Source of the DNA: Psammoneis japonica
Taxonomy: Eukaryota
Direction of reading: 5' to 3'
Length of the DNA stretch: 64,000 nt
NCBI GenBank assembly: GCA_008632985.1
Contig: QPGO01000055.1
Span: 225,100-289,099, forward strand
The translations under genes were made by a program, and so were the position numbers. This document shows positions 5,846 to 63,049 of the stretch, piece after piece (positions within the stretch are counted from its first letter, which is position 1; each line of letters starts with the position of its first letter). The notes below the pieces were generated by a model that worked only from the letters and a program-made list of their open reading frames with translations, was not told the origin of the DNA and made no database searches.

Positions 5846-5954
5846 TGCACTTCTCCGTTGAGTAGTTCAGAGCGTCATCTGACATCGGACCGCGTGATCT
5901 GAAGTTTTATGATGACGACCAAGGAGCACCTTAATCATTGCGGCCATGCGTTTC

Positions 5955-25790: not shown

Positions 25791-25849
25791 GATCAGCACA
25801 CTCTGGTGGGTGTGGAAATGACAGCTCTGCTCTAGAGCAAGCTGGCTTG

Positions 25850-30700: not shown

Positions 30701-31261
30701 GCCTGTCCTGCAATGTCAGATGAGAATTCTGCCTGATGCATGTGGGTGAAAGATCCTTGCAAGCACTGAAAACCATGCAGAGCCAAGACATGAATGGGTT
30801 GCAGCTCAAGTCATCAAAGATTTGTCCATTGAGAACAAGCATTCTTGACGATGACAGATCAGGTTTGCAGTCTGACACATGACGACGTGTCTGCTCAAAG
30901 CTGGCCAACTGCTGGCACATGACAGAATGGCCAAAGGACCAGGGCAGGAGAACCAGCAAAGCTGAAGAGAAAGATTTGCAGATCTGCTTGCTTGAAACAA
31001 GGCATTGGAGAAAGCACAGAAGATTGGAGCCCATGGCTCAATTTTAAACACAGCTTGGAGCAAAGAGAAATCCACAGACCAGATGCTTTAGATTGCTGTC
31101 AGCTCTCATTGGATGAAGAGAGAGAGAGAGAGTGACAGGGAGAGTGAGAGAGACAGAGAGAGAGAGAGACAGCAATTGAATTTGAATGGTCTTGGTCAAC
31201 TTGTCCGTCCTCCTTTGGATCTTTTGATGCAACAGCGCCCACCATGTGAACAACAGCAGCC

Positions 31262-31313: not shown

Positions 31314-32304
31314 AATGTTGTTGTGCCTGCTGTTCACTGAAACAGCTGGACAAATGTCTGATTGAGTGGCTCTGCCTCAGCTGCTGGTGTCATTTGTTTG
31401 TCACATTCAACGGAAATTGGCTTTGCCAATTTTGATCATTCCAGAGAGAGAGAGGCAGAGAGAGAGAGAGAGAGAGAGTGCAAAGGAACCACCCTCCCCA
31501 CCGCATGCCATGCTCTGCCATGCACTGCATGAAGCTGTGCTCCCAGAGGAGTTTAGCGCCAACCTCATCCATTGCAAGCGATTCATTGATGATGTCTTCA
31601 GCATTTGGAAAATCACCGAACCTGCCACTGACACCGCATGTTGGAGGGCCGCATTTGCCTCCAGACTGAATGACTGCAAAATCAATTGGGTCATGAGCCC
31701 GCAGTCACTCCAATCCAATTTTATGGATCTCACCATCACACTCCAAGGCTCCCACATCCACACCACTCTCTATGAGAAAGAGATGAATCTGCATCCATGC
31801 ATTCCACCACACTCAGCTCACCCACCTGGAGTGCTCACTGGCCTGATTGTGGGCACGCTCTTCCACTTTAAAAACCTTTGCTCCAATCCATCCGACGCTA
31901 AAGCAAAGATGAAATCACTCTGCCTGCGCCTTCTTGCTCAAGGCCACAAACCCAGCAAGCTGCAACCCATTTTCCAAAAAGCATGCAACCACTTTTTTTG
32001 AAACGAGACCACAGTGGAAGCACCTCCAACCAACCCACCCATCTCCCTCCACATCCCCCATCATCCAAATGACCCACCATCTGGCAAACTGCAGAAGATT
32101 TGGAAAGAAATGATGGCCTCTCCACCCTGCTCCCAACCACCAGCCAACATCTGCAACCATGCCCAGCAACGCATTGGCCTGGACCATGTGATCATCTGCT
32201 GCAGCCGATCACGCAACCTTGGCAACCTCCTTTCGCACTGCATCCTTCACGTCTCCAATGCCCTCGCAGTTTTGTCCTGCCGGGTTGCAAACAGGGAGGC
32301 CACT

Positions 32305-32335
<31 letters not shown>

Positions 32336-32444
32336 CGCGCGGCAAACTTGTGCCAAAAAATTGGTCGATCAAGTCCACCCGCCCATCCTCCACCCCTTGG
32401 ATCCTTTTGGCGCAACAACTTCAACCACTTCAACAACATCAGCC

Positions 32445-32490
32445 GGCCGCTGATGAAGCCACCACAAAAGTCTCACTCCTGACTTCAGCC
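32445..32490 (+). ncRNA. Decayed hammerhead copy (GAAA box lost)
   Basis: GGCCGCTGATGAAGCCACCACAAAAGTC...GACTTCAGCC; differs from the 35761 copy by CG->CA changes. Confidence 0.6.
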
Positions 32491-32623
32491 AATGTTGTTG
32501 TGCCTGCCATTTGTCAAAACAGTTGGACAAAGATCCAAGCTGGCAGCTCTGCCTTGGCTGCTTTTGTTCTTTGTTTGTCGCATTTGATGGAGAATTGGCT
32601 GCGCCAGTTCTGTTGTTTTTCAA

Positions 32624-33622: not shown

Positions 33623-33714
33623 AGGCGATCCACCGCCGAATCCACCGCACACACGGATTCGTCGCCGATCCATCTCGCACAACCCACCACAACGCCTGCA
33701 CCCACCTCCAACAC

Positions 33715-35633
33715 ATGCCTGCCTGGTGCCACTTCAGCAGGCCCTCTCACCTTGCCTTCCATGATTGCACCACAATGAAACAACCACCAAAAAACCTTCA
33801 ATCACCACTCGGTCTCGGCTTGAAATTGATCCCAACACCACGCTTCACCAATGACGGGAAGTCCTCCAAGATCCAAGAACACACACTCGGACGATTCAAG
33901 CAAGACCTCGACAAGCATGAGCATTTTGCCAATGCCCCAATTGACAATGCTGACGGAGATTACAACCCCCGGATGTGCCTCCGGTCCAATTGGACACCTC
34001 CCTCTTGGAAACTCACCAACATCATCAAATGCCGCTGCACCACTTTCAAGACACAAGTCACCAAGCTGCTCGTGAAACGCCATGGCAGAACCAACCTCCT
34101 GCCTCACCAACGTCGCGCCCTCACCCACCTTCACAAACAAGATGACTTCATGATGGCTCAATGCGATAAGAACTTGGGACCCGCCATCATCGAAAAGACT
34201 GAACACATCAAGATGGCATGTCGCGACCACCTTAACAACACCAACGCATGTCGTTTCCTCAACGAATTTGAAACCCGATTCTATGAACGCGGCATCAAAA
34301 ACCTCCTCAACGATTGGCTCATGACATGCAAAGCCAGCCTCACCCCCATGGAACGCAAGCACCTCAAAAACTGTCTCGAAACTAACGAAGACCCGTTCCC
34401 TGTCTTCTGCCTCACTCCAAAGGTGCACAAGCCCCCGCCGCTACGATCTCGACCAATCGTTTCCACCAGCGGCAGCCCACTCTACGGCTCAGGCATCTGG
34501 GTAGACGACAAGCTCCAGAAGATTGCTCGCCACCAACGTTCACACTTCAAGAGCTCCCTGGACCTGAAACAAGCACTCGTCCGGATGGAGTTGCCACCGA
34601 ACTGCCTCCTCTTCACATCCGACGCCGAGGCCTGCTGCTCCAACATGCCCACCAATGAAGCACTTCGATTGATCGCCGCCTGCCTCCGACGTCATGAAAA
34701 TGACTGCAACGATGTGCCAACGGACGCCCTCATCAAAGCCCTCCGAATCGTTGTGGAAAACAATGTGTTCACATTCGGAGATGCAACCTGGCACCAGCGC
34801 AATGGAACCTGCCATGGGTGCACCACCCGCCCCTCCATGCGCTGCCTCATGCTGCGCACTTCACGAAGACACACTCCTGGAGGAGTTTAGCTCCCAGCTG
34901 TTTTATTGCAAACGATTCATTGACAACGTCTTTGGCATTTGGCGCATCACCGACTCTGCCACCGACTCCGCCACCTGGGAAGCATTTGCCTCCAGGCTCA
35001 ACGACTTCGACATCACCTGGATCACGAGCGCCCGAAGCTGCCAAGTCAACTTCATGGACCTCACGATCTCACTCCAAGGCTCCCACCTGCATGCCACCCT
35101 TCATGAAAAAGAAATGAACCCACACATGCACATCCCGCCTCACTCAGCTCATCCGCCTGGAGCACTCACCGGCCTCATCATGGGCATGCTCTTTCGCTTC
35201 AAAAACCTCTGCTCCGACACTGACGATGCCAAAGCGAAAATGAGACTGCTCTGCCTTCAACTTCAAGCTCGAGGCTGCAAGCCCAGCAAACTGCAACCGC
35301 TCTTCCACAAGGCACATGACCGCATCTTTGGCAACGCCACCGGAACAATCCAAGCACCTCAGTCAAACCCCATCTTTCTGCACATTTCCCATCATCCGAA
35401 TGATCCGCCATCAAGTGAACTGCAGCAAATTTGGAAAGGTGCCATGGCCACCCCTCCCGGCTCACAACCCCTCTCAAACCTTCGAAATCACGCTCGACAA
35501 CGCATCGGCCTTGACCGCATGATTGTCTGTCATGGCCGCTCACACAACCTCGGAAACCTTCTGTCTTGTCACAAACTTTGCATCTCCCATGGCCCCCCAG
35601 TTTCGTCCTGCCGGATTGCAAACAGGGAGGCCC

Positions 35634-35666
<33 letters not shown>

Positions 35667-35671
35667 GGTGA
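33715..35671 (+). pseudogene. Penelope-type reverse transcriptase, frameshifted, no visible endonuclease
   Basis: DKNLG, PKVHK...RPIVS..GSP, NNVFTFG...Q.NG, AMGAPPAP, KRFIDN(D)VFGIW, VNFMDLTI, IPPHSAHP; frameshift near 34810. Confidence 0.88.
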
Positions 35672-35760
35672 TTTGAACCAATCAATCGAGTCAACTCGCC
35701 TGTCCTCCACCACTCGGATTTTTTAACGCAACAACCTCAACCACGTCAACAACAACAGCC

Positions 35761-35808
35761 GGCCGCTGATGAAGCCACCGCGAAAGTCTCATTCTCCTGA
35801 CTTCGGCC
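35761..35808 (+). ncRNA. Minimal type I hammerhead ribozyme motif
   Basis: GGCCG-CTGATGA-AGCCACCGC-GAAA-GTC(loop)GAC-TT-CGGCC: conserved core boxes, stem I GGCCG/CGGCC, stem III GTC/GAC. Confidence 0.75.
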
Positions 35809-35959
35809 AACGTTGTTGTGCCTGCCACCCACCGAAATAGTTGGATAAATGTCCGATTAAGCAGCTCTACCTTAGCTGCTTGCATTCTTTGTTTGTCACA
35901 TTTGACGGAGAATCGGCTGCGCCGATTCGTTCGTTCATTCGAGAGGAGAGAGAGAGAGA

Positions 35960-38235: not shown

Positions 38236-39253
38236 ATGAAGCTTTCTTCTCTCCCCCTCTTTGCCTTCCTTGGATTGGTTGCCATTGCGCAAGCCTCAGG
38301 TGTGTTGACTGCGATAGTTGACCCTTCGCATGCTTGAAATTCCGATTGTAAATTTCACTCACTATCTATTCCTTACTGCATCCGTGATAGCTGCAGACAT
38401 CTCGACAGGCACTATCCTCGTTGATGACGGCAGTGAAGAAAAAGGCCGTGGTCACGGAAAGCAAGATCGCCCCATCAAGGACAAACCGACTACTCCTGGG
38501 AAGAAAATGCTGAGGACTGGCAAACCCGACGACCGTCCGGTGGAGAAGGACAAAGGCGAGAAGCCTGACAACGAGCCTACCATGACTAGGACTGGCTATA
38601 CGGAGAAGGAGGAACGCGTAAAGCCAGACAACGAACCCACGAGGACCAGGACTGGCTATACGGACAAGGAAGAACGCGAGGCAGAGCGTGAAAAGGACAA
38701 GGAGGAACGCGAGGCGGAGCGTGAAAAGGACAAGGAGGAACGTGAGGCGGAACTCGAAAAGGACATTGAGGAACGCGAGGCGGAGCGTGAAAAGGAGAAG
38801 GAGGAACGCGAGGCGGAACTCGAAAAGGACATTGAGGAACGCGAGGCGGAGCGTGAAAAGGAGAAGGAAGAGCGCGAGGCGGAACGTGAAAAGGATAAGG
38901 AGGAACGCGAGGCGGAGCGTGAAAAGGATAAGGAAGAGCGCGAGGTGGACCGTGAAAAGGACAAGGAGGAACGCGAGGCGGAGCGTGAAAAGGACAAGGA
39001 AGAGCGCGAGGTGGAGCGTGAAAAGGACATCGAGGAAGGCGAGGCGGAACTCGAGAAGGACAAGGAGGAACGCGAAAAGCCAGATAACGAGCCCACCAAG
39101 AAACGTGTAAGGAAAAACAAGCCTGAAGGGGACAAGCCCAAACGCACCAAGGAAGAAAGGATTCAGCGCAAATGCCGCAGATGCAAGAAGGATGGATGTC
39201 TCGAAGGAAACGAAGACGCCAAGTGCGCAGCTTGCAAGGCTTGCTACAGTTAA
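38236..39253 (+). CDS. Secreted highly charged protein with 11-aa (33-bp) EEREAEREKDK repeats and Cys-rich C-terminus
   Basis: Signal peptide MKLSSLPLFAFLGLVAIAQAS, phase-1 intron 38300-38390 joins the repeat ORF; about 12 repeats at ~38670-39075; ends CRRC...C...CAACKACYS. Confidence 0.8.
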
Positions 39254-39798: not shown

Positions 39799-42168
39799 TT
39801 AGAGAAGCTTCTTTCGTTTCTTTTTCTTCTTGGGTGGCTGGACAGGAACTTCCAGCTGATCAAATGACAATTCGACCTTTTCCACCTTGACGTCATCTAC
39901 GTCGACAAAGTTTCCACCTCGATTGCTGCCCCTGTGTTTGTCGTTATTGCCTGCCTGATTGTCCCCATCCCGATGATGACCTCGGTCATCCATGTCCCCA
40001 CGAGGCCGATGACCATGATGGCGGTCTCGATCGTAACTGTGGTGGTGGCGCTCTTCCTCTTCTTCCATCCTCTTGCGCCTTTCTTCTTCCTTTCGCCACA
40101 ATTCTGGTTCTGGGTCGGTAGCCGTTGGATTCTCGGCGCCAGTCACGTTACTGAGGACCAGACCAAATTTGGCACCACAATCCACCAGTATGGGTGGAAC
40201 GGGTCGATTGGCTTCGCTGTCCCACGATTTCATCATGTACGGATCGTGACACTTTGTCACTTCTGCTCTTAGAAATTCTGGGTGCTTCTTGACCAGATGC
40301 TTTTCTAGAAACTTCTTGTCCTTGAAGAGCTTTCGACAAAAGTGAAAAGAGCACCTCGCCCTTCCATCGGCATCAATGATACAATGATTTTGAACCCATT
40401 CGTCCGTCGCCGATGCCTCCAATTCCTCAATCTCCTTGGCTTGTTGGTCCGTCGTTTCATCATCCAACACATTCCCTCCCGCGTGCGCCACCCATTCATT
40501 GCTTTGCTCCAACGCCTTGGTAATGGAATCATCCAATCGCATCACCAACAAGTCCTTGGCAGGTTCGCTTTCGCCGCCATCATTATCCAAATCACCGTAC
40601 ATTTCTTCATTTTCTCGTTTCGATTGCTGAAGCAACTCATCTGCTCCCTTGAGTCGCAAATGAATCACCCCGGCAGAATGCGTATTCGAAAAGACATCTC
40701 CCACACCATTGGCTCGTGTACAGCCATTGTAAAAGGAAAACAAGTGAACTCGACGAAGATAGGCAATACTGACATCGAGAATATCGGCAGCAGAGTCCAA
40801 GTGTAGCACATCGAGCAAATCATCCAGACGAACTCCTTGTGAAATACCCCGCGCCACATCGAGTGCTCTCGTCAACATGACGGCCGCGTCCTTGTCTCGA
40901 TCAATCCGTTCGGTACACGACAGGGCCGCCGTCAAGACGGCAACCGGCTGCGTTTCTAACGTCGTTTGTACCGAAACAGTGGCACGTCGTGTCGGTACCT
41001 TTTCCATGTCTTCGGAAGGAGCCGTTCCACCACCCTTGCCATCGGGATCCACTTCGAATCGTCCGTAGGGATCGGAACAATCGACATCCAAATCGAGAAA
41101 TTTCGGCATGGGACGATCCTTGGCATCGTCCTTTCGAGGAATATCACCCGCAGTTGTGGTGGAGGTCGTGGTGGTCGTGGCATTGGGGATGCGGCTTGCC
41201 GAGTAGTTTGCCTTTTCGAGATTATTCAAAATATCCAATCGCACATCAGATGATTCACAAACGACGTGTGCTTGACGACACAGCGGTCGGTTTGCGTTGG
41301 AAGCGGTATATGTGACGGTGGAACTGTACACTTGAATCTTGGCTCCATCCTTGGAACAATGATCCATGATTGCGTGGTGCAACTGATCCTCTGTCACATG
41401 CGGCGGAACTTGTCCAATCATAATGACAGTCTTGCTCTTGACCGCATCCAAGACGTGACTCTGGGGAACAGTGTTGGAATCGTCTTGTTTTTCGTCTTGT
41501 GGTTGTGGTTGCTCATTCGTTCTGTATTTACGTTTTCGTTGTGTTGAAGTGTTTGATTTCTGTCCTTGTCCCAATTGAGCTTGCTGTACAAAGACTTGTG
41601 GGTCGGCATGGATTTCTTCCAACATGCACTGTGCTTCTTGAACGGCACGATTGGCTTCGAGTTTGGCCGCCATGGCTCGTCCCAAAGGAGAGTACCGACT
41701 CCGAAACCAGGAATCGTCCAAGTGTTCATTGAAAAAGGAACGGACATACTTTAAACAGTAATGATGACGGTACGTGTCGTAGTCCTCCTTGTTTTCTGCT
41801 TGTTGTTGTTTTTGAGTTTCATCGTCGTCGTCATTCTTCTTGTTGCTTTCGTCTTCGTCTTGTGCTTTTTCGTTTTCACTATTCTTCTGTTTTTGTTCTT
41901 GTTCCCATAAATACTGACAAAGCATGGGAGTCTCCATATACCGCTCTACAGCATGACGGAATCGCTTCGTAGAGCCTGTGCCTGCTCTGGAGGGAGAGGA
42001 ACGATGTTCGGTAGACGACCGAGTCGAGGATTTTCTTCTGGCTAATGCTGCTGCGGGATCGTCTCGACTGTTGCTACCTCTGCTGCTGTAATGATGATGA
42101 TCGCCACCACCTCCTCCTCCAGATGCTGCTGCTCCCGGTACCTCGCGGCCAAACTCGTCAACCACCAT
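39799..42168 (-). CDS. SRRT: SERRATE/Ars2 (cap-binding complex adaptor, small-RNA biogenesis)
   Basis: FFNEHLDDSWFRSRYSP, YLRRVHLFSFY, C2H2 finger CSFHFCRKLFKDKKFLEKHLVKKHPE. Confidence 0.88.
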   Translation of the reverse strand: MVVDEFGREVPGAAASGGGGGGDHHHYSSRGSNSRDDPAAALARRKSSTRSSTEHRSSPSRAGTGSTKRFRHAVERYMETPMLCQYLWEQEQKQKNSENEKAQDEDESNKKNDDDDETQKQQQAENKEDYDTYRHHYCLKYVRSFFNEHLDDSWFRSRYSPLGRAMAAKLEANRAVQEAQCMLEEIHADPQVFVQQAQLGQGQKSNTSTQRKRKYRTNEQPQPQDEKQDDSNTVPQSHVLDAVKSKTVIMIGQVPPHVTEDQLHHAIMDHCSKDGAKIQVYSSTVTYTASNANRPLCRQAHVVCESSDVRLDILNNLEKANYSASRIPNATTTTTSTTTAGDIPRKDDAKDRPMPKFLDLDVDCSDPYGRFEVDPDGKGGGTAPSEDMEKVPTRRATVSVQTTLETQPVAVLTAALSCTERIDRDKDAAVMLTRALDVARGISQGVRLDDLLDVLHLDSAADILDVSIAYLRRVHLFSFYNGCTRANGVGDVFSNTHSAGVIHLRLKGADELLQQSKRENEEMYGDLDNDGGESEPAKDLLVMRLDDSITKALEQSNEWVAHAGGNVLDDETTDQQAKEIEELEASATDEWVQNHCIIDADGRARCSFHFCRKLFKDKKFLEKHLVKKHPEFLRAEVTKCHDPYMMKSWDSEANRPVPPILVDCGAKFGLVLSNVTGAENPTATDPEPELWRKEEERRKRMEEEEERHHHSYDRDRHHGHRPRGDMDDRGHHRDGDNQAGNNDKHRGSNRGGNFVDVDDVKVEKVELSFDQLEVPVQPPKKKKKRKKLL

Positions 42169-42574
42169 GCTGGAAAAAAGACAAAGTCACCAGAAGTAGC
42201 TAAGTATTGAAGTGTAGACTGCTAAGGCAGACGCGGCAGCATAACAAAAACAGCAACAGCGATAACAACACAATAACATGTAACAGCGATGCGATGTTCT
42301 GTTCGTTTTGGTTTCCCTCCATACGTTGAACTTTGTGAGGGAAAAGATCGTACGATGGACAGAAAAATACGGCTCATGGCCTGTTTCGTAGAAACACACT
42401 GCAAGAATACAGTAGGACAATTTTTGGCGCGAAACTAAATAAACATCTTCAGTGCCGACGAATCACATGACAACTCCAAAAATAAAAAGGCTGTTGACAA
42501 CCAACAACAAAAACCAAAAGAACCATGAGCAGCCGTGTCTGTGGACAAGCTGTCAACAAGGGCGGTCCATCAAA

Positions 42575-45500
42575 ATGGCAGCGTCAAATGGGACACACGG
42601 TCATTCCAAGCGCAAGGCAGAAAAGAACGAACAAGAACCGGAATGAGCGCAACGCCGTGCCGAGTGTCATCGTAAACGTCATGGTGAAGCCATTGACGTC
42701 AAGTTTGGGTGTGAACGATAGAATCACACTGCATCGACGGAACCGAGATGTCATGGATGGTTGCTCAACATGTTGCCAACGGCAAGTCAATGCCGTGCGT
42801 GTGAATTGTGAATGGCGGGAGTCTCAATCACACGCCCGTGTGTTTCTTGTGCTCTCGTCATTGTCATCCATCGACAGCAGCGTCGGGTGCTTCTTTTGGA
42901 AGTGGAGCAGACGATGGCTCTCCGGATGGTCCAGAATGTGCCAGATTGATTCATCTGCCGCAGGGAAAGAGCTCAGCATTCACATGCGAGATTGAAATGT
43001 CGGAGCACGGAGCACGTTTGTAGAGTCAAGAAATGGTCGAAATCCACATCTACATCCTGTCACTTCAGCCGGGATCGAGGACAAGTCATGTGAGACTGGG
43101 ACTCCATTGATGCTCCGTGCGTCATTGGGATGCGCGCTCAGAATCCCAACATCTGCTGCGTCCCAAGATGGGAGTCGCAAGTCGCGCGCCTTGTCGGAAT
43201 TGCAGCGCATCAACCGTCTGGCCAAAGGAGTGCATCTTAGCAAACATGATGTGTCACACAAACGCATCTTCATTTCTGTCGCTGCGAACGCAAAGTCCAA
43301 GACAGAAATCGTGGCCATGTTCAAGATGGACGGTGGCAAAGGAGAGAACAGACCTTTTGAATGAAGCGGAGGCTTCCGGCCAGAAATCTGAGTGCAGCAG
43401 CATCTCCCCCGAGAGCTGCTTTAACATGACAAGCAAGCGTTTTCCGGCATTGAGGAGGTGCTCAGCCCGTGCGGCCAATTTAATCAAGGTCCCACATTTG
43501 TGCTCCTCAGCGGCAGCAAACCGTTGCCGCACCTCTGTCGCGCTGTTCCAAGCTTCAATTCGTTCCCGATCATCACTTTCCCTTTTCCACCTGGTCCTCA
43601 TGCAACCCTTCTTTGATGATTCTGCCCGCGTTGAATTGGGAGCCAACGGCAGCACAGCTCTGCATGGAAGCATGCTTCCACATGGGCGTCATTTCCTTCC
43701 CCAAGCGCGTCTCTCATGCCAGACATTTGCAGGTGCCGGTTGGAAATCTCGATCAAGACGAAGCTGTTGCGTTGTGCGACTTTGGATTTGGTCACCAGTC
43801 GGACTGTGTCGTGGGCAAGCGCGACGCATCCTGACTTTGGAATGTCGTTCCTCTGAGGTGATTGCAAAACCGATGAAACTTCCATCCTTTCGAACCAAAA
43901 AGAAATTTGGGGCGATGATGATGAGCTGATGAGTCCGGTTGTTCGTTGTCCTGGCTCTTGTCATTGTGTTTGCACTGAAATCGATGCACACGATCTGGCA
44001 ATTGTTGCCGCCCTGACGGATGCCGCTGCGGCCGCTGCTCTTCCTTCTGCTGTGAGCCAAGCGGGCATCCCTGCGTCACCGAGCAGCGTCACCATGTTTG
44101 ATTCCACATTTGACGGAATGAATTCCATGGTTGCGGGATCTTTGGGGGACGAAATGTCAACATCCGCATCACTTCCGATTCTGCGTGCATTTGTCGGAGC
44201 TTGGCTTTACGATGCCTTCGAAGCAAACAGTCAAGTTGCAGACGACATGCTCCACAAAGTGCACTGTCTTGTGTCGACGCCAGAGCCACTGTTGAATGAC
44301 CCAACTCTCCATCGAGTGATCCAATCATTGATGAAAGCGACTTTCTTTCGACGTCTTGGTGAACTGGAAAGGCTTGTTTGTCATGTTGTTTGTGCGACAT
44401 TTCGCAAGGTGACAGTCGCTGCGAATGAGAGCAGCCTCTCCGACGCTGCGGAGCATGTCAACTTTGTCATTTCTACGATTCGAAATCTAAGCGGAGCGTC
44501 CGAGGGTGACCAAATGTTTGCAAGACTGGGTCGCATTGAGTTGCGTGCAAGCACCTGCTTCTCGCATTGTCTCTTTCTTGACGAACACAACTGCGGTGGG
44601 ATTCATCCCGAGCGCCTCCAGTTGGAGGAGGGCGAAAGCGATTGGTTGATTCCGACTGAAGATGAGGGCGGTGTGCCAATCTTCCCAACGGTGGCAAGCG
44701 GTTGGAACATGATGCATCATTTGGGGAGCGAAATTGCACAAGATTGCTTCCGAGTCATTGTTGGTCACTTTTCCAAGGATGTTCTCCGGAAGCAGATTCA
44801 GCTTGATGAGCGAGACAAAAATGCCATGTTGGAGGACGATGCTCTAAATGCATGCAAGAAGAAATTGACATCTGAGCACTTTGCTGACTGCCTGACGCGA
44901 GCTGTAAGAGATCGAGGAGGAGGGAGGCGGTCCGAAAAGTTTTCTAGAGTCACACCCGGAACGCATCTCGTGCTCACCAATCCCACATTGGAGTTCATCA
45001 AGAGTGTCATGGTTGCATTGGAGTTGGATTCCGACGTACAAAAAGGAAGCACATGCATTGAAAAAGAGCTTGCTAGCTCAGACCGGAGTTCCAATGCTGC
45101 CAAGTGGGAAGACCCTTGCGCCTCTTTCATCTTGCCCGACATGTTTTGCATGGAGTGTCATGAATGTCGTGACGTGAATCTCTGTGATCTTCCGCCACTG
45201 AATGAAGAAGAGAGAACTCAAGTGCCAAGTCTCCTGGACGGAACTTGCAATCGCTAGAGGCGTGTCTACAATGCATCTCATGTGGTCGACTCCTTCTTCG
45301 TTACAGAGACAGTGGGAATGTGAAGACTGCGGCACCCCATGCTGTTCGCAGGACATGGAACGAAGACTTGCAGATCTTTGCAATCGAAAAGCCATTTGTC
45401 ATCAGTTGCAGGACGTGCGGTGCACCAAGACTGGTGCAGTTGGGACGAGAGCCATGTCACGGCAGTCCGATTGTTCGTCTGAGTTACAGCAGGACATCCC

Positions 45501-45603
45501 TCGGGAACAGGCACTGTCACAGTTGAAGATTGTCAATTGTCTTGCTTCGTTTCATGGCTTGGAATGGTCGGCCGAAATGACGCTAGAGCTGCTCAAACTC
45601 TGA
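42575..45603 (+). pseudogene. POLE: DNA polymerase epsilon catalytic subunit, C-terminal half only, mutated
   Basis: DUF1744-like CTEIDAHDLAI, LLNDPTLHRVIQSLMK, FLDEHNCGGI; C-terminal Cys motifs WEDPCASFILPDMFCMECHECRDVNLC and WECEDC...HQLQDVRC; several frameshifts and stops; no N-terminal polymerase domain. Confidence 0.85.
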
Positions 45604-45849
45604 TGTGGTGCCGATGCACAACGAGGTGGTGATTTCAGATGAAGACACGTCTCCAATCTAGACGAGAGTCCATTTTGACAATCTCAGCACGATTCCAGAT
45701 TTTTGGAAAGTCAAGTGTGTAAATTAGGAGACTTTGGCTTTGTCCTCTCGCATCCATGTCCCTGTCTACTGGCTCGCTCGAGCGACACTCGTCGTTGCGT
45801 TTGCATCTCAACTTTCGAATCAATTTCATTGCAGAAAACACTTCTAAAC

Positions 45850-48130
45850 CAGATGATGCCCATTTTGGGTGTCTGTCTTCTCTGCCTCAATCACCATTTT
45901 CCATGAGCAATGCCCACTGTGCACTGCACTGGAGCAACTGCCTCTTAGAGTCTAGACCAATGCAGCACAAGTCACAAGAAATGTGGCAGCATCTGCGAAG
46001 TTTGAAGCAAGCGTGACTGCGAGTGTCAATTTTTTACGGGATTCGCCAACGCATTTTGCACTCAGTCACAAATGCGACGCGCGCTCTTCATCACCACATG
46101 CAATTCCGACTTTTGTTGCACTGAAACACTCTTGCTTTGCCAACCCATCTTTGTTGCGATGCCACCCCAAACATGATTGCATGAATTGCACTTGTCATCC
46201 TCTTGTTGAATCTCCTGCTGTGCCTCTTTGATGCTGGTGAGCAGAGCCAGCGCGCTGCCACCACAACATTGGCCATTTTCTCTGTGAAAGTTGTTGAACA
46301 ACTGCCAGCATTGTTTTGCTGTCAATGTGATTCTCCTCACAATTGGAGAAATTTGCAAAGCTTTTCTTGCTCTCCTCATTCTGTCTGTCATGTGCTCATT
46401 GTCCAGCTCTGGCTCGGACCTCACATTGCTGGACTGTGACATGATGAGAGCTTTTTGGTCATGCTCATCTGCGTGTCACGCACTCAGATTTCTGAGTGCA
46501 CTTTTCTGCAAAATTGTGCCATCATGCTCCCTGTTTTTTGCCAAGCCGAGGGCTTTTTATCATGGCTGTTTGTCAGAACAAACATTGGCTCTGCTGGGTG
46601 TTCTCTTTGGTGTCTGAAGAACACACCTGCACAAGGTGGAAATGATGGTGTGCTTCACAATGAAAAAGGAGGTGCAATTGCAAAATTGCCGCTTTTTCTG
46701 TTGGTGATTGTTGGCACATTTTTGCTGCCTGGCAATTTTGCTGTGGAGCTTGTGCGCAGAATTGTGCACACAAATGCCACATGGAGTTCCACCTCCTGGG
46801 GCTAGAACACATCTTTTGCAGCTTTTTCTTTGAAGCTCACAATGCTGTTGCAGCCACTCTTGCGGCAACAGCATCTGTGTGCAGACAATGCATCAGAGCT
46901 TTTCTTCATTGTCAACTTTGCTGCCCACATTGTAGTTCCTTGGCTGCTGTTCTTGAAGTGCAAATTGCTCAGCCATGGTCATGTCAGATGTGTGGTGCAC
47001 CCCCAAAGATTGCAGGGCCTTTGAAGCAGAGTTTGCTGATGCTGCCCCATCAAAGCTGCTGCGGCTGCTTGAAAATGACTCTTTGAGATCCCAAGCATGC
47101 AAGAGCCATCAGGCAAGATGTTGGGTTGTGCACTGAGATGAGTTGACAAAAAGCAAACAAGCTGTGGCTCAGAGTCATTGCTTTGCCAACAGTGCTTGCA
47201 GCAGCTTCACTCCTTGTCTCAACAAGCTGGTGCTCTCTGGAGAATTTCCCCCCCCCCAGCCAGCAGGGAAGCCAAGCACTGTGCTGCACTTGTGTTGTCC
47301 CCCCACTCAGAACAACTGGCAAGTTCAGTTGTTTGTGAGTGTTGAGAACATTTCCCACCAGGTTTGGTTGCGCAACACGACCTGCTTCAGAAAACTGTCG
47401 AGGTTGCGTTGTTGTGTGACAGATGATGGCAGCTTGAAAAAGTCTTTCAAGAGACACTCCCCCAAGCCTGCGTCAAAGTTCATCGCATGTCGGCAACAAT
47501 GAAGAAACGCTGGGAGATGGAGTGTTTCGTGAAGCTTTTGAAGCTTCCATCCGCGCCCTTGGCAGAGCTGCAGCTGTGAGCAGCCCTCTGGCTTCTGTTG
47601 TGGAAGTCATCTCCATGACTGCAGATGCTGCTGTCACCTTGAATGATGACAACTTGGTGCTCATGCCCTTCTTGAGCAAGCTTGTGACAGTGACGCGCGT
47701 TTGTCAAGCAGCCAGTGGTGAGATTGCAGAAAGAGAACACAAATTGAATCTCTGGTGGTGTGGCGCAAGTGTCTTGATGACCAAACAGATTTTGTTAAAA
47801 GTTCATTGGGTGCAAGTGCACACATGAAAGCAATTTGAAAATTGCAGGCCACAAAAAACTTGTGAGACAACAGCACAAAAACAACAGCAACCAGGAAAAA
47901 ACAGAGAAAATGTTCGTGGTGAAGATGTGCTGGTGTGTGCTGGAGAGAGGAGCCCGGAGAAAATGTGGTTGTAGTGTCTGTCATTGATGCATCATTGGCT
48001 TTCCATGCAGTTGACGAGCATGTGGGATGGGGTGAATCAAAATGTGATGGATTTGTGACCCGATTTTTTTTTGACACCCACACTCCACCGGCACATTTTT
48101 TGAAGCAATGTTTTGCATTGAAGATTTCTC
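45850..48130. repeat. Unclassified TpA-depleted degenerate sequence
   Basis: TA nearly absent, strong TG/CA excess, no recognisable protein. Confidence 0.55.
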
Positions 48131-48489
48131 AATAACACGGTGACAGAACACCCATCACATCATACAGCCAAGGTGATTCCACGAGAGCACGCTTTCTGCT
48201 TTCTGCTCACAACATCATATCCCTGCTTATTTTTCACGAGCTCTAATTTGCACACGAACCACATGCTGGTTCCTGTGCATTTACGTACATTTTATACCAG
48301 TCGCATCGTAGTGGGGTGTTGTTCGCCGGCCCTGACGAACTCTTTCTTTGACATAAAATATTTTTCACGACGGCCGGCACAGACTGCCGGCTCGGTGGAC
48401 AAGTGTTAAGTGGTACAAACACGTAGATCCTACGTCAGATTTACAGTACTCAGATTTATTCGGTACAAATCTACGCAGCATTTTGCGTA

Positions 48490-48562
48490 GGGTGCACACG
48501 AACCACCAGGTGGTTCGTGTGCACCCAAAAATGCACACGGACCACCAGGTGGTTCGTGTGCA
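48490..48562. repeat. Two tandem palindromes
   Basis: GGGTGCACACGAACCACC-A-GGTGGTTCGTGTGCACCC (18-bp arms, 48490-48526), a near copy at 48532-48562 and a degenerate copy at ~48249. Confidence 0.85.
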
Positions 48563-53178: not shown

Positions 53179-54268
53179 TTAGACAGGCATGTTCATCAGA
53201 TCTCCGAGTATCAAACTAAACTGCTCGTCTTCCTCTGATTCATGGGAGTAGTCTGATTCGGAAGAGCAGTCGATGGGAGATGGAACAGACTCTAATGCAT
53301 AGTCCATAGTTGGGCTCAAATAAGGATGACTTGGGATTCCTTGTGACGGCTTCGACTCCGACGAAGATTGGCTTGTTGTACACCATTTGGGCACGATCCA
53401 CTGGTGGCGTTGTGATTTCTTCGTGGGTGATTCGTTTTCAGAAAAGACAGTATTCACGGAAGATGGAGCTTCGTCAGGTACAATCAACTTCATAGCTTGA
53501 GGAGGACAGGAAGACTCTTGTGGACGCATCGTCGTATTCAACTGAGGCCAGAACGACGAGAGCGACACCTGAGGTTCTGGAAGGACTGCAGTTTCAACCT
53601 GAGGAGCATCGTTTCTGACTCGACTGATCGGTGATGACGGTGGGCTGCTTTGGAGTGGTGGATATGCGTAAAGATCCGGTTCTGACTCGGGAGAACTCGG
53701 TTGTCGCACGCCAGTTCCCCTGACCTCAATACGCCGTATCTGAAGACACAGAAAGAACCTGTCCCTGAGAAAGAGTTCGTGGTAGTAGCTTCCTGCATCG
53801 GGCCCAGTGGTGATTCTTTTAAAGTTATAAATGTTCAGCTGGAGTTGAATAATGACAGAGATGGATAATTCCGGCATGGTTAGAAGAAACGGTATTGCTA
53901 CAGCCCATTTTACGCCGATCATGTTGTAGAGGGCAATCTCTTACCTGGCGTTGAAACGATGTGAACTTGGTATTTGGGAAGTACTTGGGGAGAATCTGAT
54001 CTACAAATCGCTTCCGATTGTGAATCAGAAACGCTCTACCATGTGGCTGCCAAGAGACAATGCCATCCAACGCTTCTTCTTCAACTTCCGTGAGCATCGA
54101 ATGAAGCTTCACTTGGAATGTCTCGCCGTGAAGATTTCGCTTCTTCTTTGATTGCGTCGTGTTGGCGTCGTTCGCATGGTCGATGTAGATCACGGTCGGC
54201 TTTTTAGGGGACGCATTATCGGCGTGGACGCTTGTAGAAGTTGGTAACGAACCCATTTTCCTCCTCAT
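53179..54268 (-). CDS. Heat shock factor (HSF) transcription factor
   Basis: FQVKLHSML...IVSWQPHGRAF...LPKYFPNTKFTSFQRQ|LNIYNFKRITTGPDAGSYYHELFLR; intron 53839-53944. Confidence 0.92.
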
Positions 54269-54799
54269 CTCTGCAATGTGTTCTGATGTGTGGCAAAAGC
54301 GTTCCTTGTTCTTTGTCTCGCTAATCGTGATGCCGAGTTTCTCTGTCGATGCATTCGGACTTTTATCTGACACGATGACATCAGAAGATGTTAAATAGTG
54401 GTAAATGAATCTTTTGCTATTTAAGTAAACATTTATCCCAAGAACATTTTCATGATTAAATACGGACGTGGCAACATAACACCACGACACACATACGTGC
54501 CGTACTGTAGTGTGTTCTGTACAGTACAATCATGGGTGAAAAATGAGTGGCTGACGGTGCTGCGCTGGCGGCGCAAGATGACACCTTCTTCCGTCGCGAA
54601 TGCCTTTGAAACTTCAACATTCTTCTTTCTTTCTTTTCGTCATCGTTGAAATCTTTGTCATTGATGCGTCACACCTTTCTTGTTCATTTTATGAGCACAT
54701 TAAAATATCTAAAGTTATGTATAAAAAACATGCCCTTTTTCGTTTGCACTTTGCACAGCTTTTCCGTTCTTTTCTCCTTTTTTTGCTTTTTTCCTTTTT

Positions 54800-57481: not shown

Positions 57482-58398
57482 GTGGCTTTCAGACCAATGA
57501 CGAGCCCCCTAAAGCCATTTGGATTGTGGATCTACAAGCACTGCCTTCATGATTGCTGTCAGTTTCGTCGAAAACCGGATGTAAAAGACCAACCTATCAA
57601 TGTTTGCGGGGTTATCCAATTCATTGCTGCAAAGTTCTTACTTGAAGTCAGCGGTGCTGCCGGAGCTGTTTGGGGGTCTTCTGAAGCTTTGACATTGCGT
57701 CGTTCTAGCCGTGAAATCAACAATGAGTCATGGCGTCTTGTCGCGATTGCCGTTGGCCTGGTGTTTGTCGTTCGTTTCTGGTGGCATGCCAAACACTATT
57801 TTCAACACGAACGGGATTTTCTCCCCATCAAATTGAATCATCGACGGATATGGAAACTTCCCTTTCTGCAAATCTTTTCTTCGAAATTCTTATTGGAAGT
57901 CTTCGGTGGCACTGGAGCAATTTGGGGGTGTTCAGAAGCTCTGACCTTGCGGAACGATACGAATCAACATGATTGGAGAATTGCGGCAATAGCAGTTGGT
58001 GCCACGTTTTAATCCGTTGGATCTATCAAATACTTGCCTATTGTCTTTATTTGGCTCCCTTATGGTATAATCCGACGTCGATTCTCATGACGATGGTCCG
58101 TTGTTACGAAGCCTTGGTGGTCAAATTTATTCTCGAGGTGTTGGGGGCCGCAGGAGCCGTATGGGGGTTCTCGGAAGTTGTATACCTTCGCACACCACAG
58201 ACACTTGCTCTGTGGCGGACTATAGCTGTGGTTACGGGTGTTGTCTTCATGGTTCGATGGCTTGCTCACTTGTATTTCTTTATCAAAGATGAACGAAGCT
58301 CTGCGCATACTCAGGATATGGTCCAACCACAAGATACCAAAACGGAAGAGGTTCAAGATTTGGAGATGTCGGACCTTGCCTTGAAGGAAGCATCTTAG
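57482..58398 (+). CDS. Membrane protein with three internal KFxLEVxGxxGAxWGxSE repeats; 1-bp frameshift at ~58010; 5' end uncertain
   Basis: ORFs 57482-58012 and 57973-58398 hold repeats 1-2 and 3; adding one T in ACGTTTT-AATC joins them. Confidence 0.7.
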
Positions 58399-60916
58399 TT
58401 TTCTCCTTGTTACCATTGTGGTTCGCCCGGTATGGTACGAGATGCGCTAGTGTATCTTCCTTGGTTTATTACTTGTATGTTCTGAAGTTCGCTTAGCTTT
58501 CGTTGCTTTTACTTGTCTGTTCCAGATCACATTGCAGTACCTTGGTTGTAGCGGCAATGATTGACTCTTTTGTATACACCCGATGTGAGTACACGACTAG
58601 TGTACCATGAGACCAGCATAAACAAGCTATGCAAACTCTCAAGAACGAGCGCATATCATTATTGTGCCCGTCTGATGATGCTGATCAGTAGTGTACCCGC
58701 TCCACATTTATCGTTGTTCATGAAGGAACGATTTATGACATATTTTTCGATTTGTCGCAAACGCTAGTGATTCAGCTGGCTGCTGGTGCAAAGTACGAAG
58801 TATGGAAAGTGAACCCTTTTTGGTAGTCACCAATGGTGCTTCAAGGGAGTCTTGCCACCAGTTATTTATACCCGAGTGATGATTGAAGATGCGATTTATC
58901 AACTCAAGTACTCAACAGCATGGTACCGAGGGTCATCAAGCGGCAAACTGGATGCAACAGAAACGATTCGGGTCCTTCAAAAACTGGCGCGCCTTAGAGA
59001 ATAGAATAGAGCTTTTCTTGGTTGTCAATGATCTAGGCCCTCTAGCGCCGTCTCCACAGTTCCCAGCTCCAATGATTGCTCCAGCCAGTGCGAAACGCTC
59101 CTCTTCAACATTTTTCGACTGCTAAATACCTGCGCTGATGCTATCCCGAGTTAATTTAGCTAGCCTATCTAGGAGAGAGTAGAGGTATCAAGTATCATAC
59201 CCTCTACTACTAGCTTCAGTTAAGAGCGAGGGTTTGGTCGGTGTCTTCCGTCGGTCGGTCTTCCAATTCTTTGAGCTCCTTTTGCCGATGCAGTAACACA
59301 AGATAGCGGTGTGGTACAAAACTAGAAGCGACGACATCAATGCATACAACGACACATCTACGACCGTCATCGTAGTCTATTGACGTACGTACGGATTAAC
59401 TTATACTCAAATAAAGATTGCTATGTCATACTCTGAGTCTTTCTACTTCCATTGAAAGAGTTTCAAAGAGTCAAAAGTCGCTATTGAAATCCCTCCGCTA
59501 TTTCGGCAGAACACTTGAAACTCCCTAAAAACAAGTGAACACGACGAATCCATAAGATATGCAGGCGATCAGCGCCGAAATAGTCCAACACACATCGACG
59601 ACAAGCCTTGGGGGGATACTGTAACGAATATCCCAGCATGGACCCCACCTGAAAGAAAAAGAGCAGTGTGGTACGAGAACAGAAACCATGACATCAAAGT
59701 GTGCGATGACATCGCAAGAGCTACGGCCGTCATCGTAGTCGTACGGAATAATTTACACGCCAATAAAGATTGCTACAATGTACTTTTAGTAATTCTACTT
59801 CTATTTTGAAGGTCCAAAGCATGTTTCTTAAAAAGTGAAACACGCCAATATCAGAAGTTGATAGAAATCGGTCGCGTAGGATAACGTTGCCTCAAGAGCG
59901 CCATCAGAAGATGGAGCTCAAGCTTTTCGTATCTTCAGAGTGAAAAGTGTCACTCAAAAAATGTAAAAGGGGGGACGTACTACGGAGACAACAAGAAAAC
60001 TTGCGAGTCAACCGCGTTCTAAATCAACACTCCCTACGAGTGAAGACTTACCGTGTCATGTCACTGATACGACGGAACCCCAAACCCGCGTTCCGTCAAC
60101 GGCATGATCTGCTTGGCGAGCTTTTGCTGCTTCACAGATGAACGCTGCTGTCTGTTTCAACAGCCGTGACCTGACGGGTCAAGCGAACAGGCAACTTCCT
60201 ACGCTCAAAGACACGAGAGTGACATGGACTCAAGGCCGGAGAGACGCATTCGATTTGCCCCGACCTCTGGACTTAACTGGCAACACCTACGCCACCTAGA
60301 GACAACACGCCATCAAGCAAATGAGTTGTGGAATGCCAAACAAGAGCGAGCTCTCAATCCAGAGGAAGGGCGAGCCATCCTCGGAGATTGCGGCTTCCGG
60401 CTTGGCAAACAACAAGACATCGTGCGAGACGACGATTTTGTGATCGAAACGAAAGAATTTCCGAGACATAGAGATTTTGTTTGTTTCGTGACCGTTGCTA
60501 AATTTCTCAATCACTATCATTTTGTGTGTATCTTTGTAGAATTACTACCATGATTTCGCATGTAAAAGATTCATGGGAATGCAGTGCTTTCAAAAATACT
60601 ACGGATTCCTACGTGCACTTTACTGTAACCGTCGAAAATGCAAAAGACTTGCCGAGCGACTGACTGACGAAAAAAATCTTCAAATTCGCACTCCAAATTC
60701 ACAATCCAATTCCGCCCACAACGCAACAAATTTGACATTGAAGAGCAGAGAATCAGATGACAATGAAGGTCAAAGTTGTGCACAAAGCATGGCCTTTTTT
60801 GGTTTGCGCCTTTTCGTTCTTTTCTCCTTTTTTTGATTCCTTTTTTCACCCACACGTGGAGGGCACCACTTCCACGAACGACAGCAAGAAGAAGCAGAGC
60901 ACACGAGAAAGAGCAC

Positions 60917-62870
60917 TTGGATTGTGGATCCACAATCATTGCCTCCATGATTGCTGTCAGTTTCATGGAAAACCAGATCTGAAAGACCAACCCACCAATG
61001 TTTGCGGGGGGTGTCCAATTCATTGCTGCGCAAAAGTTCTTGCTTGAAGTCTGCGGTGCTGCCGGAGCTGTTTGGGAATCTTCTGAAGCTCGGACATTGT
61101 GTCGATCCAACCATGAAATCAACAAGCACAATGAGTCGTGGTGTCTTGTCTTGATGATTGTCATTGGCCTGGTCTTTGCCACTTGGTTTTCAACATGAAC
61201 AGGATTTTCTCCCCATCAAATTGAGTCATCGATGGACGTGGAAACTTCCCTTTCTGCAAAGCTTTTCTTCAAAATTCTTGTTTGAAGTCTGTGGCAGCAC
61301 TGGAGCAATTTGGGGGTGTTCAGAAGCTCTGACCTTGTGGAATGATGCAAATCAACATGATTGGCAAATTGCTGCTGTGGCAGATGGCACCACGTTCTCA
61401 GTCCATTGGAGATCTGTCAAATGCTCGCCTGTTGTCTGCAATTGGCTCCCTTGTGGACCAATCTGATGTTGACTCTCATGACAGTGGTCCATTGTTGCAC
61501 AAAAGCTTGGCACCCAAACTTGTTCTCGAGGCATTGGGGGAAGCCCAGCAGGAGCCATGTGGGGGGGGGTTCTTGGAAGTTGCTTCTTGCTTGCCCTGTG
61601 GCAGACTGCAGCTGATCATGGCGGGTGTTGTCTTCATGGTTTGGTGGCTTTTTCACTTGCCTTTCTTTGTCAAAGAAGATGAATGGAGCTCCACACATGC
61701 TCAGGATGTGATCCAACCACAAGACACAAAAATGAAAGAGGTTCAAAATTTGAAGATGTCGAACCTTGCATGAAAGGAATCATCTCAGTTCCCCCCTTGT
61801 TTCTGTTGGTGTTTGCCTGGCATGGTGCAAGATGCATTCATGCATCTTCCTTGGTGTGTCACTTGTGCATGTTTTTCTGAAGCAGGCTTGGTTTTCGTTC
61901 CTTTCACTTGTCTTTGCCATGTGACTTTTTAGTCACATGGCTGCACCTCAGATGCAGGGGCAGTTGCTGACTTTTTTGCATGCACTTGTCATGATTGCAA
62001 GACCTGTGCACCCCAAGTCTGACATGACCAAGCTGCGCAAGCAGCTCTCAAGAATGAGCAAAGCCATGCTTGCCATGAGAACGAACAAACGTTGTTGTTG
62101 TGCACGTCTGATGAGGCTGATGAGTGCACCCGCTCAACTCACCAAGAGTCATTTTTGACACATTCAACTTTTTTTGGAAGGAATGACACTTGTGATGCAT
62201 TTGGATTTGTCATTGCTGTCATTGATTCAGCTGGCTGGTGCCAAGTTCGAGGCGCATGGAAAATGCCAAAACCTGCGGCGCTTGTGACAGACAGCACCTG
62301 AGTTCTTTTTGTTGGCAGTCGTCAACGGCACTTCAAATGAATCTTTGCAACCAGTTGCTGGCCAGCATCAGAGTGGTGATTGAAGATGTGATGCAATGAC
62401 ATGGCACTGAGGGTTGACAGGCAGCAAACTGCAGATGCGACAAAAAAGCAACTCGGCTCGGCGGTTCTTCAAAAACTGGTGTGACAGAGAACAGAGTGGA
62501 GTTTTTCTTGATTGCCAAGGATCCAGTGCCATCTCCATGGTCCCATTTCCAATGACTGTGTCAGTCAGCGAAACTCTGCTCTTCAACATTTTATGACTCG
62601 TGCTTGATGCCTGCCGCCATCCCGAGTCACTTGCACTTCTTGAGCCACCTTGTCTGGCCACCAGCTGCAGAGGAGAGCATCATGTAGAAGCACCCTCTGG
62701 AGCAGCTGGAGCAGCCACCAGCAGCTGCTGCAGTGCCCTCTTTAGCTAGCTACTCTCTACAAGAACTGCTCTCTAGCTAGAGCAGAGGCTAGCTCCAGCA
62801 GAGAGAGTGGAAACAGCGGCGAAGGTTTGGTCCGCGTCATCGATCGTCGGTCGGTGTTCGAGCTCCTTTA
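60917..62870 (+). pseudogene. Hypermutated duplicate of 57517-59285 (membrane protein gene plus downstream flank)
   Basis: Colinear alignment; TA sites of the first copy read TG/CA; frameshifts present. Confidence 0.92.
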
Positions 62871-63049
62871 TTGCGGCCGATAGCTCGTATGAGTCATTGC
62901 TCTCGGCTCTCGGCCATGAGACTGCGACATTGTGAAGTGCCGCCGCCCCGACCTTATTACATCTCTACAAGTACCACCATTCCCGTTCTCTCGATTGAAT
63001 AAGTACAACTATAGAAGAGGCAGTGCCAACGAGCAACAATTCTTAGACC

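Follow-up and report, generated by a model that had tools for sequence, protein, structure and literature searches.

The stretch of DNA analysed here (the window, 64,000 nucleotides of contig QPGO01000055.1) is nuclear DNA of a diatom, Psammoneis japonica. At 42952-45603 it carries a dead, 5′-truncated duplicate, made at the DNA level, of the C-terminal ~870 codons (the C-terminal 40%) of diatom POLE. In this fragment the dinucleotide TpA (TA) has been removed almost completely, while CpG (CG) is mostly, though not wholly, preserved. The reading that we prefer, at a probability of about 0.62, is that the TAs of the dead POLE duplicate were erased by adenine deamination and that CpG decay is a separate, independent process. 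That TA loss and CG loss are separable is well supported; the TA loss is always the more complete of the two.

A dead duplicate of the C-terminal part of POLE

With Pfam, DUF1744 (E 7e-29) and zf_DPOE_2 were found in 43857-45257 and zf-DPOE in 45202-45603. The C-terminal DUF1744 and zinc-finger modules are thus all present (PF08490, PF23250 and PF22912). All 120 homologs listed for the 466-codon frame at 43857-45257 are POLE-like, and the named ones are all diatom proteins (including Thalassiosira, Cyclotella, Fragilariopsis, Cylindrotheca and Pseudo-nitzschia). The best among the homologs listed, P0001, shares 61.6% identity with the fragment over 721 aligned codons in a frameshift-aware alignment (56% by BLASTP). 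No closer relative was found in the protein database searched, in which the parent protein and the window's own protein are absent. By tblastn and frameshift-aware alignment, the POLE homology runs from 42952 (aa 1284 of the 2154-aa POLE of T. pseudonana) to the stop at 45601-45603. The protein match does not extend upstream of 42952, and the fragment lacks the N-terminal half with the exonuclease and polymerase domains; the DNA upstream includes an intact Ars2-like gene on the opposite strand. The first-pass annotation had called a POLE half-gene here, and this identity stands (Pfam, homologs), but its start at 42575 was set ~380 nt too early. The fragment consists of the following parts:

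42952..45221, forward strand: POLE main exon part, from ~aa 1284 of T. pseudonana POLE onward, with DUF1744 and the first zinc-finger module
45222..45306, forward strand: retained 85-nt GT..AG intron, seen from the sequence, the frame change and the X2 contig junction
45307..45603, forward strand: final POLE exon, carrying the zf-DPOE zinc finger; stop at 45601-45603; RYQLQD reads CHQLQD

The reading frame is broken by about seven frameshifts (near 43425, 43598, 43800, 44914/44934 and 45040/45090 in the alignment to P0001) and by an in-frame TGA at 43854. Together with a homology that starts only at ~aa 1284, these rule out a functional POLE gene. The intron explains an apparent further shift near 45295, and its removal restores the frame (..EERTQ joined to RQWECEDCG..). 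In contigs from a second data set, X2, position 45221 is followed by two letters and then by 45306, an in-frame junction. No poly(A) run was read in the sequence after the stop. Since the intron is still in place, the fragment is an unprocessed truncated pseudogene, and a processed pseudogene (retrocopy) was rejected.

Like ordinary unprocessed pseudogenes of essential replication genes, the fragment is truncated, has kept its intron, has frameshifts and a premature stop, and adjoins repeats. It differs from them in that one dinucleotide-specific process dominates the decay (26/110 replacements at conserved columns). This process makes no stop codons, so that long frames remain open. Since TAA and TAG cannot arise in TA-erased DNA, several reading frames stay open over long distances; the 466-codon frame at 43857-45257 is open across four frameshifts. 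Dead genes in such DNA may therefore mislead gene callers.

TpA is erased and CpG largely kept

Within 42952-45603, 18 TAs are observed where 155.2 are expected, an observed/expected ratio (o/e) of 0.12. TG and CA stand at o/e 1.42 and 1.39. The 3′ part of the fragment and its flank (44.8-45.85 kb) still contain 15 TAs. Even the lowest TA density found at gene level would predict 59 TAs in the fragment (P(≤18) = 4e-10). For CG, the count is 155 against 176.1 expected (o/e 0.88), which bears out the earlier observation that TA was lost while many CpGs were kept.

The direction of the change could be read from protein conservation. For this, the 120 homologs were mapped onto the codons of the fragment, and columns with at least 60% agreement were taken as conserved. 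None of the 15 conserved Tyr columns is kept (8 are now Cys and 7 His), compared to 269/355 of the conserved columns other than Tyr or Arg (Fisher p = 1.6e-9). Four more conserved Tyr columns, upstream of the homolog alignment, now read Cys, His, His and Ser. As the conserved state of these columns is Tyr, TpA was destroyed here and not created. The 20 Tyr of P0001 that fall in the fragment are replaced by His (8), Cys (7), Phe (3) and Ala (1), and the single Tyr aligned to a Tyr of P0001 is spurious, as it lies inside the intron. Overall, the Tyr content is 0.28%, versus 1.6-3.5% in six intact open reading frames (ORFs). The 110 replacements at conserved columns comprise 14 single TA>TG changes, 12 TA>CA changes and 9 CpG transitions, next to 23 other transitions, 33 transversions and 19 multi-step changes. 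Of the individual replacements pointed out earlier, YE to CE was recovered in two places and YQLQD to HQLQD at 45400. However, NYGGI to NCGGI was not confirmed, as most homologs carry Phe at that column (44592).

The Arg columns behave differently from the Tyr columns. Of the 28 that are conserved, 19 are kept (15 as CGN, 4 as AGR), and 6 read Cys or His via a CpG transition. The CpG of CGN-Arg codons was thus lost in 6/21 cases (29%, confidence interval (CI) 11-52%), while the o/e value gives a CpG loss of about 17%. The contrast with the Tyr codons (15/15 lost) is significant (p = 1.4e-5). The strong CpG depletion that marks methylation-driven CpG decay is not seen in the fragment, with its CG o/e of 0.88 and 15/21 CGN-Arg kept; it is seen in the adjoining repeat at 45851-48150 (CG o/e 0.33).

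Read contigs and other POLE copies

The TA-less POLE sequence is present in reads, and an assembly artefact is unlikely. In the public run X1, where 93% of the words sampled from 39800-48300 occur, a contig of 5269 nt (depth 64.7) equals window positions 41000-44238 except for 4 differences, all of which lie outside TA-type sites. Four further X1 contigs match 44225-44797, 44777-45140, 45435-45841 and 45820-46200 with 0-2 differences each (0 in the last). At 42753 and 43536 the assembly has CA or TG, but all X1 contigs, the window-like one included, have CG. This mismatch could be a polymorphism or a consensus error at a (methylated?) CpG.

Other contigs over the fragment are 80-95% alike, with a per-contig divergence of 9-13%. 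These contigs put roughly one additional copy on 43.1-43.9 kb and some two to three on 44.0-45.6 kb, the 3′ part of the fragment being more copied than the 5′ part. As many as seven distinct contigs overlap at 44807. Base types were taken from 40 listed differences out of 335 between contigs and window. In 14/40 the other contigs read TA where the window has TG or CA (reverse TA case: 1/40), and in 9/40 they read CG where the window has TG or CA (reverse CG cases: 2/40). TA- and CG-type differences together account for about 57% of those listed. At 44262-44267, for instance, the window reads CACTGT (His-Cys) and the other contigs TATCGT (Tyr-Arg). At the listed sites in 44000-45600 where the window has TG or CA, all other contigs read TA. 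The extra base at 45040, one of the frameshifts, is missing from the other contigs, which also contain a GAA codon after 44633 not present in the window. As far as the contigs show, a TA-intact and less broken POLE sequence is therefore present in the same sample. The first-pass annotation had allowed that no intact POLE might exist elsewhere, in which case the fragment would be an erroneous version of the real gene. At the level of contigs, TA-bearing copies do occur in X1.

No RNA data set is listed as covering this stretch. In X2, no window-identical contig was found over the POLE fragment or at 42392-42565. Neither result is evidence on expression. X2 is, at a guess, transcript-derived, judging from its perfect Ars2-like gene, its intron-less POLE junction and its 30 Mb of total contigs.

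Neighborhood and other TA-erased DNA

The fragment lies inside a continuous erased block (42.49-48.15 kb) with sharp edges at ~42490 and ~48150. The left edge is ~300 nt from the open frame of the Ars2-like gene, which has a TA o/e of 0.38 and a CG o/e of 1.06; three other intact ORFs used as gene-level controls have values of 0.53-0.62 and 0.96-1.08, respectively. Inside this one block CG falls abruptly at ~45.8 kb, from ~12 to ~2 per 200 nt. The parts around the fragment are:

39799..42186, reverse strand: intact SERRATE/Ars2-like gene of 795 codons, an untouched control; matched by an X1 contig and perfect in X2
42490..42951, no strand assigned: TA-erased, CG-rich repeated piece, non-POLE at the protein level; TA 2/26.8 (0.07), CG 30/30.1 (1.0)
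45604..45850, forward strand: 3′ flank of the POLE fragment; CG o/e 1.01, TA partly depleted (0.28)
45851..48150, no strand assigned: old repeat adjoining the POLE flank; TA o/e 0.06, CG o/e 0.33

The piece at 42490-42951 shows an extra depth of 174 in the reads and contig loose ends at 42595, 42683, 42744 and 42936, with divergence after 42936. No terminal inverted or direct repeats that would mark transposon cargo were found around the POLE fragment. The suggestion that TpA conversion also hits captured or duplicated host genes holds for the duplicated part, as the fragment is erased and the other copies keep TA; capture as transposon cargo found no support.

Across the window, eight TA-erased blocks (TA o/e 0.01-0.12) make up 29,008/64,000 nt (45%). 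The DNA outside them has a TA o/e of 0.59 and a CG o/e of 0.98. In eight TA-normal stretches the CG o/e is 0.85-1.02, and none is CG-poor. When the erased blocks are divided into 26 intervals of 1 kb, the TA o/e stays at 0-0.15 while the CG o/e ranges over 0.08-0.99. The two losses are therefore not proportional, a proportionality that would have spoken against their separability.

Two other erased regions had been compared with the POLE fragment beforehand. ORFs at 32624-35634, described as Penelope, do resemble it in composition (TA o/e 0.09, CG o/e 0.87), and a supposed Copia at 25351-31100 has indeed lost both TA and CG (0.03 and 0.10). Both transposon labels, however, are without Pfam support: no transposon domain was found in 66 stop-free ORFs of at least 150 aa window-wide (14 of them searched again at E≤5) or in 59 further stop-free ORFs of 70-149 aa from 25-36.5 kb. 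The stretch at 33268-34887 is a reverse-transcriptase-like (RT-like) lead. By eye, two overlapping open frames at 33268-35668 (forward strand) show reverse-transcriptase-like motifs with the Tyr replaced; their nearest protein-atlas clusters carry DUF8422/RVT_1 (score 0.97), and Pfam finds nothing in them.

Repeat pairs as internal controls

Two diverged repeat pairs of the window and one near-identical tandem duplication served as controls. The members of the pairs are:

57516..58650, forward strand: TA-normal copy of pair 1, a control for mutation direction and context
60914..62059, forward strand: TA-erased copy of pair 1; 0/41 TAs kept, 36 CGs lost and 9 kept
31488..32605, forward strand: copy A of pair 2, two diverged direct repeats on either side of the RT-like element; TA-less, with 34 CpGs gone that are retained in copy B
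34822..35923, forward strand: copy B of pair 2; TA-less, lost 8 CpGs that copy A kept

The copies of pair 1 are 81% identical (background divergence 11.2%). The 41 TAs of the normal copy have become 23 TG, 17 CA and 1 CG in the erased copy. Per base, A>G changes amount to 0.479 in TA, versus 0.071 in AA, 0.092 in CA and 0.076 in GA. From this contrast, the mutation is TpA-specific and its action one-sided. A Pol-eta-like spectrum (WA>WG) was tried and rejected, as AA is at background.

In pair 2, TA was lost in both copies, but the CpG loss is strongly unequal (34 vs 8, p = 7e-5). The two copies are equal in age, which shows that place matters to CpG decay alongside time. This bears on the earlier proposal that TpA conversion is faster or earlier than 5-methylcytosine (5mC) deamination. 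TA loss is indeed the further advanced of the two (15/15 Tyr vs 6/21 CGN-Arg), but a difference of time does not account for pair 2.

The tandem duplication (5947-8579 / 8574-11205) has a unit of 2.63 kb, and its copies are 99.6% identical with 11 substitutions. In each unit, one part is TA-erased and the other TA-normal; the 40 TAs that the copies share in the TA-normal part are all preserved, and a single TA>CA difference is seen. Nine of the 11 substitutions fall in the erased part, including all 4 CpG differences. There, CpGs differ in 4/27 cases versus 5/~1950 for the other bases.

Mutational signature and proposed mechanism

In the POLE fragment, 21 TG and 16 CA outcomes form 20 runs where 19.2 are expected (runs test z = 0.28). 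The 23 TG and 17 CA outcomes of pair 1 form 24 runs against 20.6 expected (z = 1.13). By these tests, no same-strand clustering of the events was found in either. The retained intron, the balanced strands and the lack of runs together indicate that the DNA itself was changed, one site at a time and on both strands.

The sequence around the TAs also matters. Among the 113 TAs that survive in erased blocks, YTAR (Y, pyrimidine; R, purine) accounts for 59/113, versus 290/1480 of the TAs in normal DNA, and RTAY for 8/113 versus 449/1480. This suggests a 5′-TAY target preference, read on either strand. As for the choice of strand, YTAY gave 11 TG and 5 CA and RTAR 3 and 3, numbers that are too few. 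Among the survivors TTAA is 3.7-fold enriched and CTAG and TTAG about 2.5-fold; ATAT and GTAT are absent (0/98 and 0/113 expected-class sites).

The C-terminal part of POLE was duplicated at the DNA level, and the copy lies beside the intact Ars2-like gene. After the duplication nearly every TpA of this copy changed to TpG or CpA, on both strands about equally, while other copies in the read set retained theirs. For the chemistry we propose that the adenine of 5′-TA, preferably 5′-TAY, was most likely deaminated to inosine, which is read as G. This deamination would act on DNA of silenced or non-genic domains. CpG loss would be a second, independent process, the deamination of 5mC, and one that has acted weakly on the POLE fragment. 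For the repeats of the window, 5mC deamination seems to be the simplest explanation of the CpG decay. On this view separate machineries lay down the two marks, which may occur apart from each other. TA erasure comes near saturation wherever it acts; CpG decay varies from block to block with time and place.

Weighing the alternatives

The fragment is not young, in view of its about seven frameshifts, its stop and its 9-13% divergence. To compare it with the repeat copies, the CpG loss per dinucleotide was scaled to the background, which for the fragment is a rough estimate of ~5% derived from the 9-13% divergence and the ~57% TA/CG-type differences:

POLE fragment: about 4-7x
Pair 1, erased copy 60914-62059: 14x
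Pair 2, copy A 31488-32605: 11x
Pair 2, copy B 34822-35923: 1.8x

These values suggest two classes of erased DNA, with an interval for the fragment that overlaps the prediction of a time lag. We lean modestly towards weak methylation, rather than youth, as the reason why the fragment has retained its CpGs.

Several points weigh against independent TA erasure by deamination. The TA and CG losses of the fragment are estimates based on protein conservation and on the 40/335 read differences listed, instead of a complete nucleotide alignment with the parent locus. X1 may be the assembly's own source data, and no library type is recorded for it. A deaminase is the most likely mechanism, but it is something that we infer, as is the methylation state of the fragment. 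Duplication alone did not trigger erasure in the TA-normal part of the 2.63-kb tandem units. Moreover, the scaled CpG loss of the fragment is merely 2-4 fold below that of the CG-poor copies (11-14x), with wide intervals. Finally, residual TA and CG o/e are correlated over the erased 1-kb intervals (Spearman 0.49, p = 0.011, n = 26), as a pure age model predicts.

The last two points bear on a time lag, in which fast TpA conversion is followed everywhere by slower 5mC deamination, and the POLE fragment and the RT-like block are merely younger than the rest. The pattern is nested as such a lag requires, as no CG-poor stretch has normal TA, and slightly more TA is kept in the CG-rich erased intervals. 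The fragment has already lost 6/21 conserved CGN-Arg by CpG transitions, and the CpG loss predicted for it at 11-14x background lies within the CI of that fraction. Among the listed differences, 7/40 are changes from CG in the other contigs to TG or CA in the window, all but one inside the fragment. It is hard to see, however, how a lag alone would leave the equal-age repeats of pair 2 with 34 and 8 lost CpGs while TA went in both, or produce the abrupt CG drop at ~45.8 kb within one continuous block. A fragment with about seven frameshifts and 9-13% divergence was also not freshly made. We therefore consider the time lag unlikely, though it retains appreciable weight. A more passive origin can be imagined as well, in which a TA-specific lesion or replication error builds up where repair is poor and a dead copy simply falls into such a region. 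The erased block continues across three stretches of unrelated DNA (the repeat piece at its left end, the POLE fragment and the old repeat), its edge is ~300 nt from the open frame of the neighboring gene, and the events are site-independent without strand runs, all of which would fit. Such damage is nevertheless improbable in light of the extreme specificity (0.479 per base in TA vs 0.07-0.09 in other NpA) and the flank preference of the survivors (RTAY 8/113 vs 449/1480, YTAR 59/113 vs 290/1480). In addition, the available part of a preprint on B. natans describes a comparable process that is switched on in some lines only, at ~1000x background, and looks regulated (bioRxiv 10.64898/2026.01.13.699255).

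Two further explanations carry very little weight. An edited retrocopy could result if a transcript were edited from A to I by an ADAR-like enzyme, which prefers a 5′ U, and then reverse transcribed. An A>G change after T is the neighbor preference of ADAR (as cited in the part of bioRxiv 10.64898/2026.01.13.699255 that was available), and the fragment is a partial gene copy. The retention of the 85-nt GT..AG intron, the equal use of both strands (14 TA>TG vs 12 TA>CA), the lack of same-strand runs (z = 0.28 and 1.13) and the erasure of non-genic flanks make this very improbable. Even less credible is an assembly or base-calling artefact, in which TA in the actual DNA, perhaps bearing a modified base, was miscalled in the consensus. 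Two of the 4 differences to the fragment's own read contig are CG in the reads versus TG or CA in the assembly (42753, 43536), which could hint at consensus errors. The TA-less sequence is, however, reproduced by the 5269-nt k-mer contig (depth 64.7) and four more contigs, TA-bearing copies coexist in X1, and the fragment is frameshifted and truncated as well. The same signature also arose de novo in Illumina data of B. natans, according to the available text (bioRxiv 10.64898/2026.01.13.699255).

Relation to known systems

Repeat-induced point mutation (RIP) changes C:G to T:A, mostly CpA to TpA, and thereby creates TpA; both copies of a duplication are mutated. It is a context-specific transition hypermutation of Neurospora and other ascomycetes (PMC2621366, PMC7296669, in the parts available). 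The process seen here resembles RIP in that redundant or mobile DNA is wrecked and a dinucleotide-skew footprint is left in sharply bounded blocks. In chemistry it is the opposite: RIP makes TA, whereas here TA is destroyed (o/e 0.12, with TG 1.42 and CA 1.39). Where RIP mutates both copies, the other POLE contigs and 57516-58650 keep TA, and the 99.6%-identical tandem duplication retains 40 shared TAs.

Cytosine methylation offers a second comparison. In diatoms, CG methylation is DNMT5a-dependent and has transposons as its main targets, as described in the available part of PMC9998398. 5mC deamination likewise turns a palindromic dinucleotide into TG or CA, and its footprint is seen in most erased blocks (CG o/e 0.08-0.4). 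The POLE fragment, in contrast, kept its CG (0.88) while TA is gone, and CpG loss varies independently of TA loss. TpA erasure thus neither needs nor entails CpG decay. As it occurs without that decay, it is separate from cytosine methylation, the known transposon control in diatoms.

The closest match is the chlorarachniophyte B. natans, a member of a different supergroup. In the available part of the preprint by Mettrop et al., mutation-accumulation lines sequenced by Illumina show almost exclusively TpA>TpG/CpA mutations de novo, at ~6e-7 per site per generation, in two viral inserts and in some lines only (bioRxiv 10.64898/2026.01.13.699255). The targets are integrated viral DNA (nucleocytoplasmic large DNA viruses (NCLDV) and virophages), and a DNA adenine deaminase with an ADAT2-like candidate is proposed (same preprint). 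In both organisms, as far as that text goes, TpA alone is changed (to TpG or CpA by strand), discrete regions are hit with untouched neighbors (here the Ars2-like gene ~300 nt off, TA o/e 0.38), and long-term TpA depletion goes with CpA/TpG enrichment. Its TpA-poor coding sequences are enriched in reverse transcriptase and DDE domains, and an RT-like block is erased here too. Two differences stand out against the same source. Erasure is near saturation in the diatom (TA o/e 0.01-0.12), versus 0.45 in the hypermutable NCLDV region of B. natans. What is hit in the diatom is not viral DNA but a duplicated copy of an essential host gene, with neighboring erased blocks that are repeats or RT-like. 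The available text of the preprint contains no mention of CpG, diatoms or pseudogenes (bioRxiv 10.64898/2026.01.13.699255). A full-text search of the literature found no other report of TpA-only hypermutation and none for diatoms, leaving this preprint as the sole parallel found. The footprint in the window matches TpA hypermutation of the kind found in B. natans; the relation to CpG decay is new.

A diatom locus thus carries the TpA footprint near saturation and at the DNA level. It follows that a duplicated essential host gene can fall victim to the TpA process, with its other copies persisting. One might go further and imagine a methylation-independent TpA-editing defence of diatoms that senses the place or manner of arrival rather than homology. 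It would quickly and one-sidedly kill only the new copy, host genes included, and spare the resident one. We regard this as possible but doubtful. If it were true, TpA editing would act as a general 'pseudogeniser' with an influence on how gene families evolve, and would represent a natural DNA adenine editor specific to TA.

Further features of the window

The remaining features lie in TA-normal DNA. Just beyond the right edge of the erased block, at 48249-48562, three copies of a 31-nt near-perfect palindrome are found (TGCACACGAACCACC/GGTGGTTCGTGTGCA type). A GC-rich open frame contains internal tandem repeats at 38542-39075, with units offset by ~60-66 nt and ~85% alike. Two separate genes with HSF-type DNA-binding domains are located at 17420-17884 (forward strand) and 53828-54529 (reverse strand). 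Further TA-normal genes code for a DUF6824 protein (23912-24751), a TYW2-like methyltransferase (20675-22336, reverse strand) and a Sec1-family protein (63047-64000).

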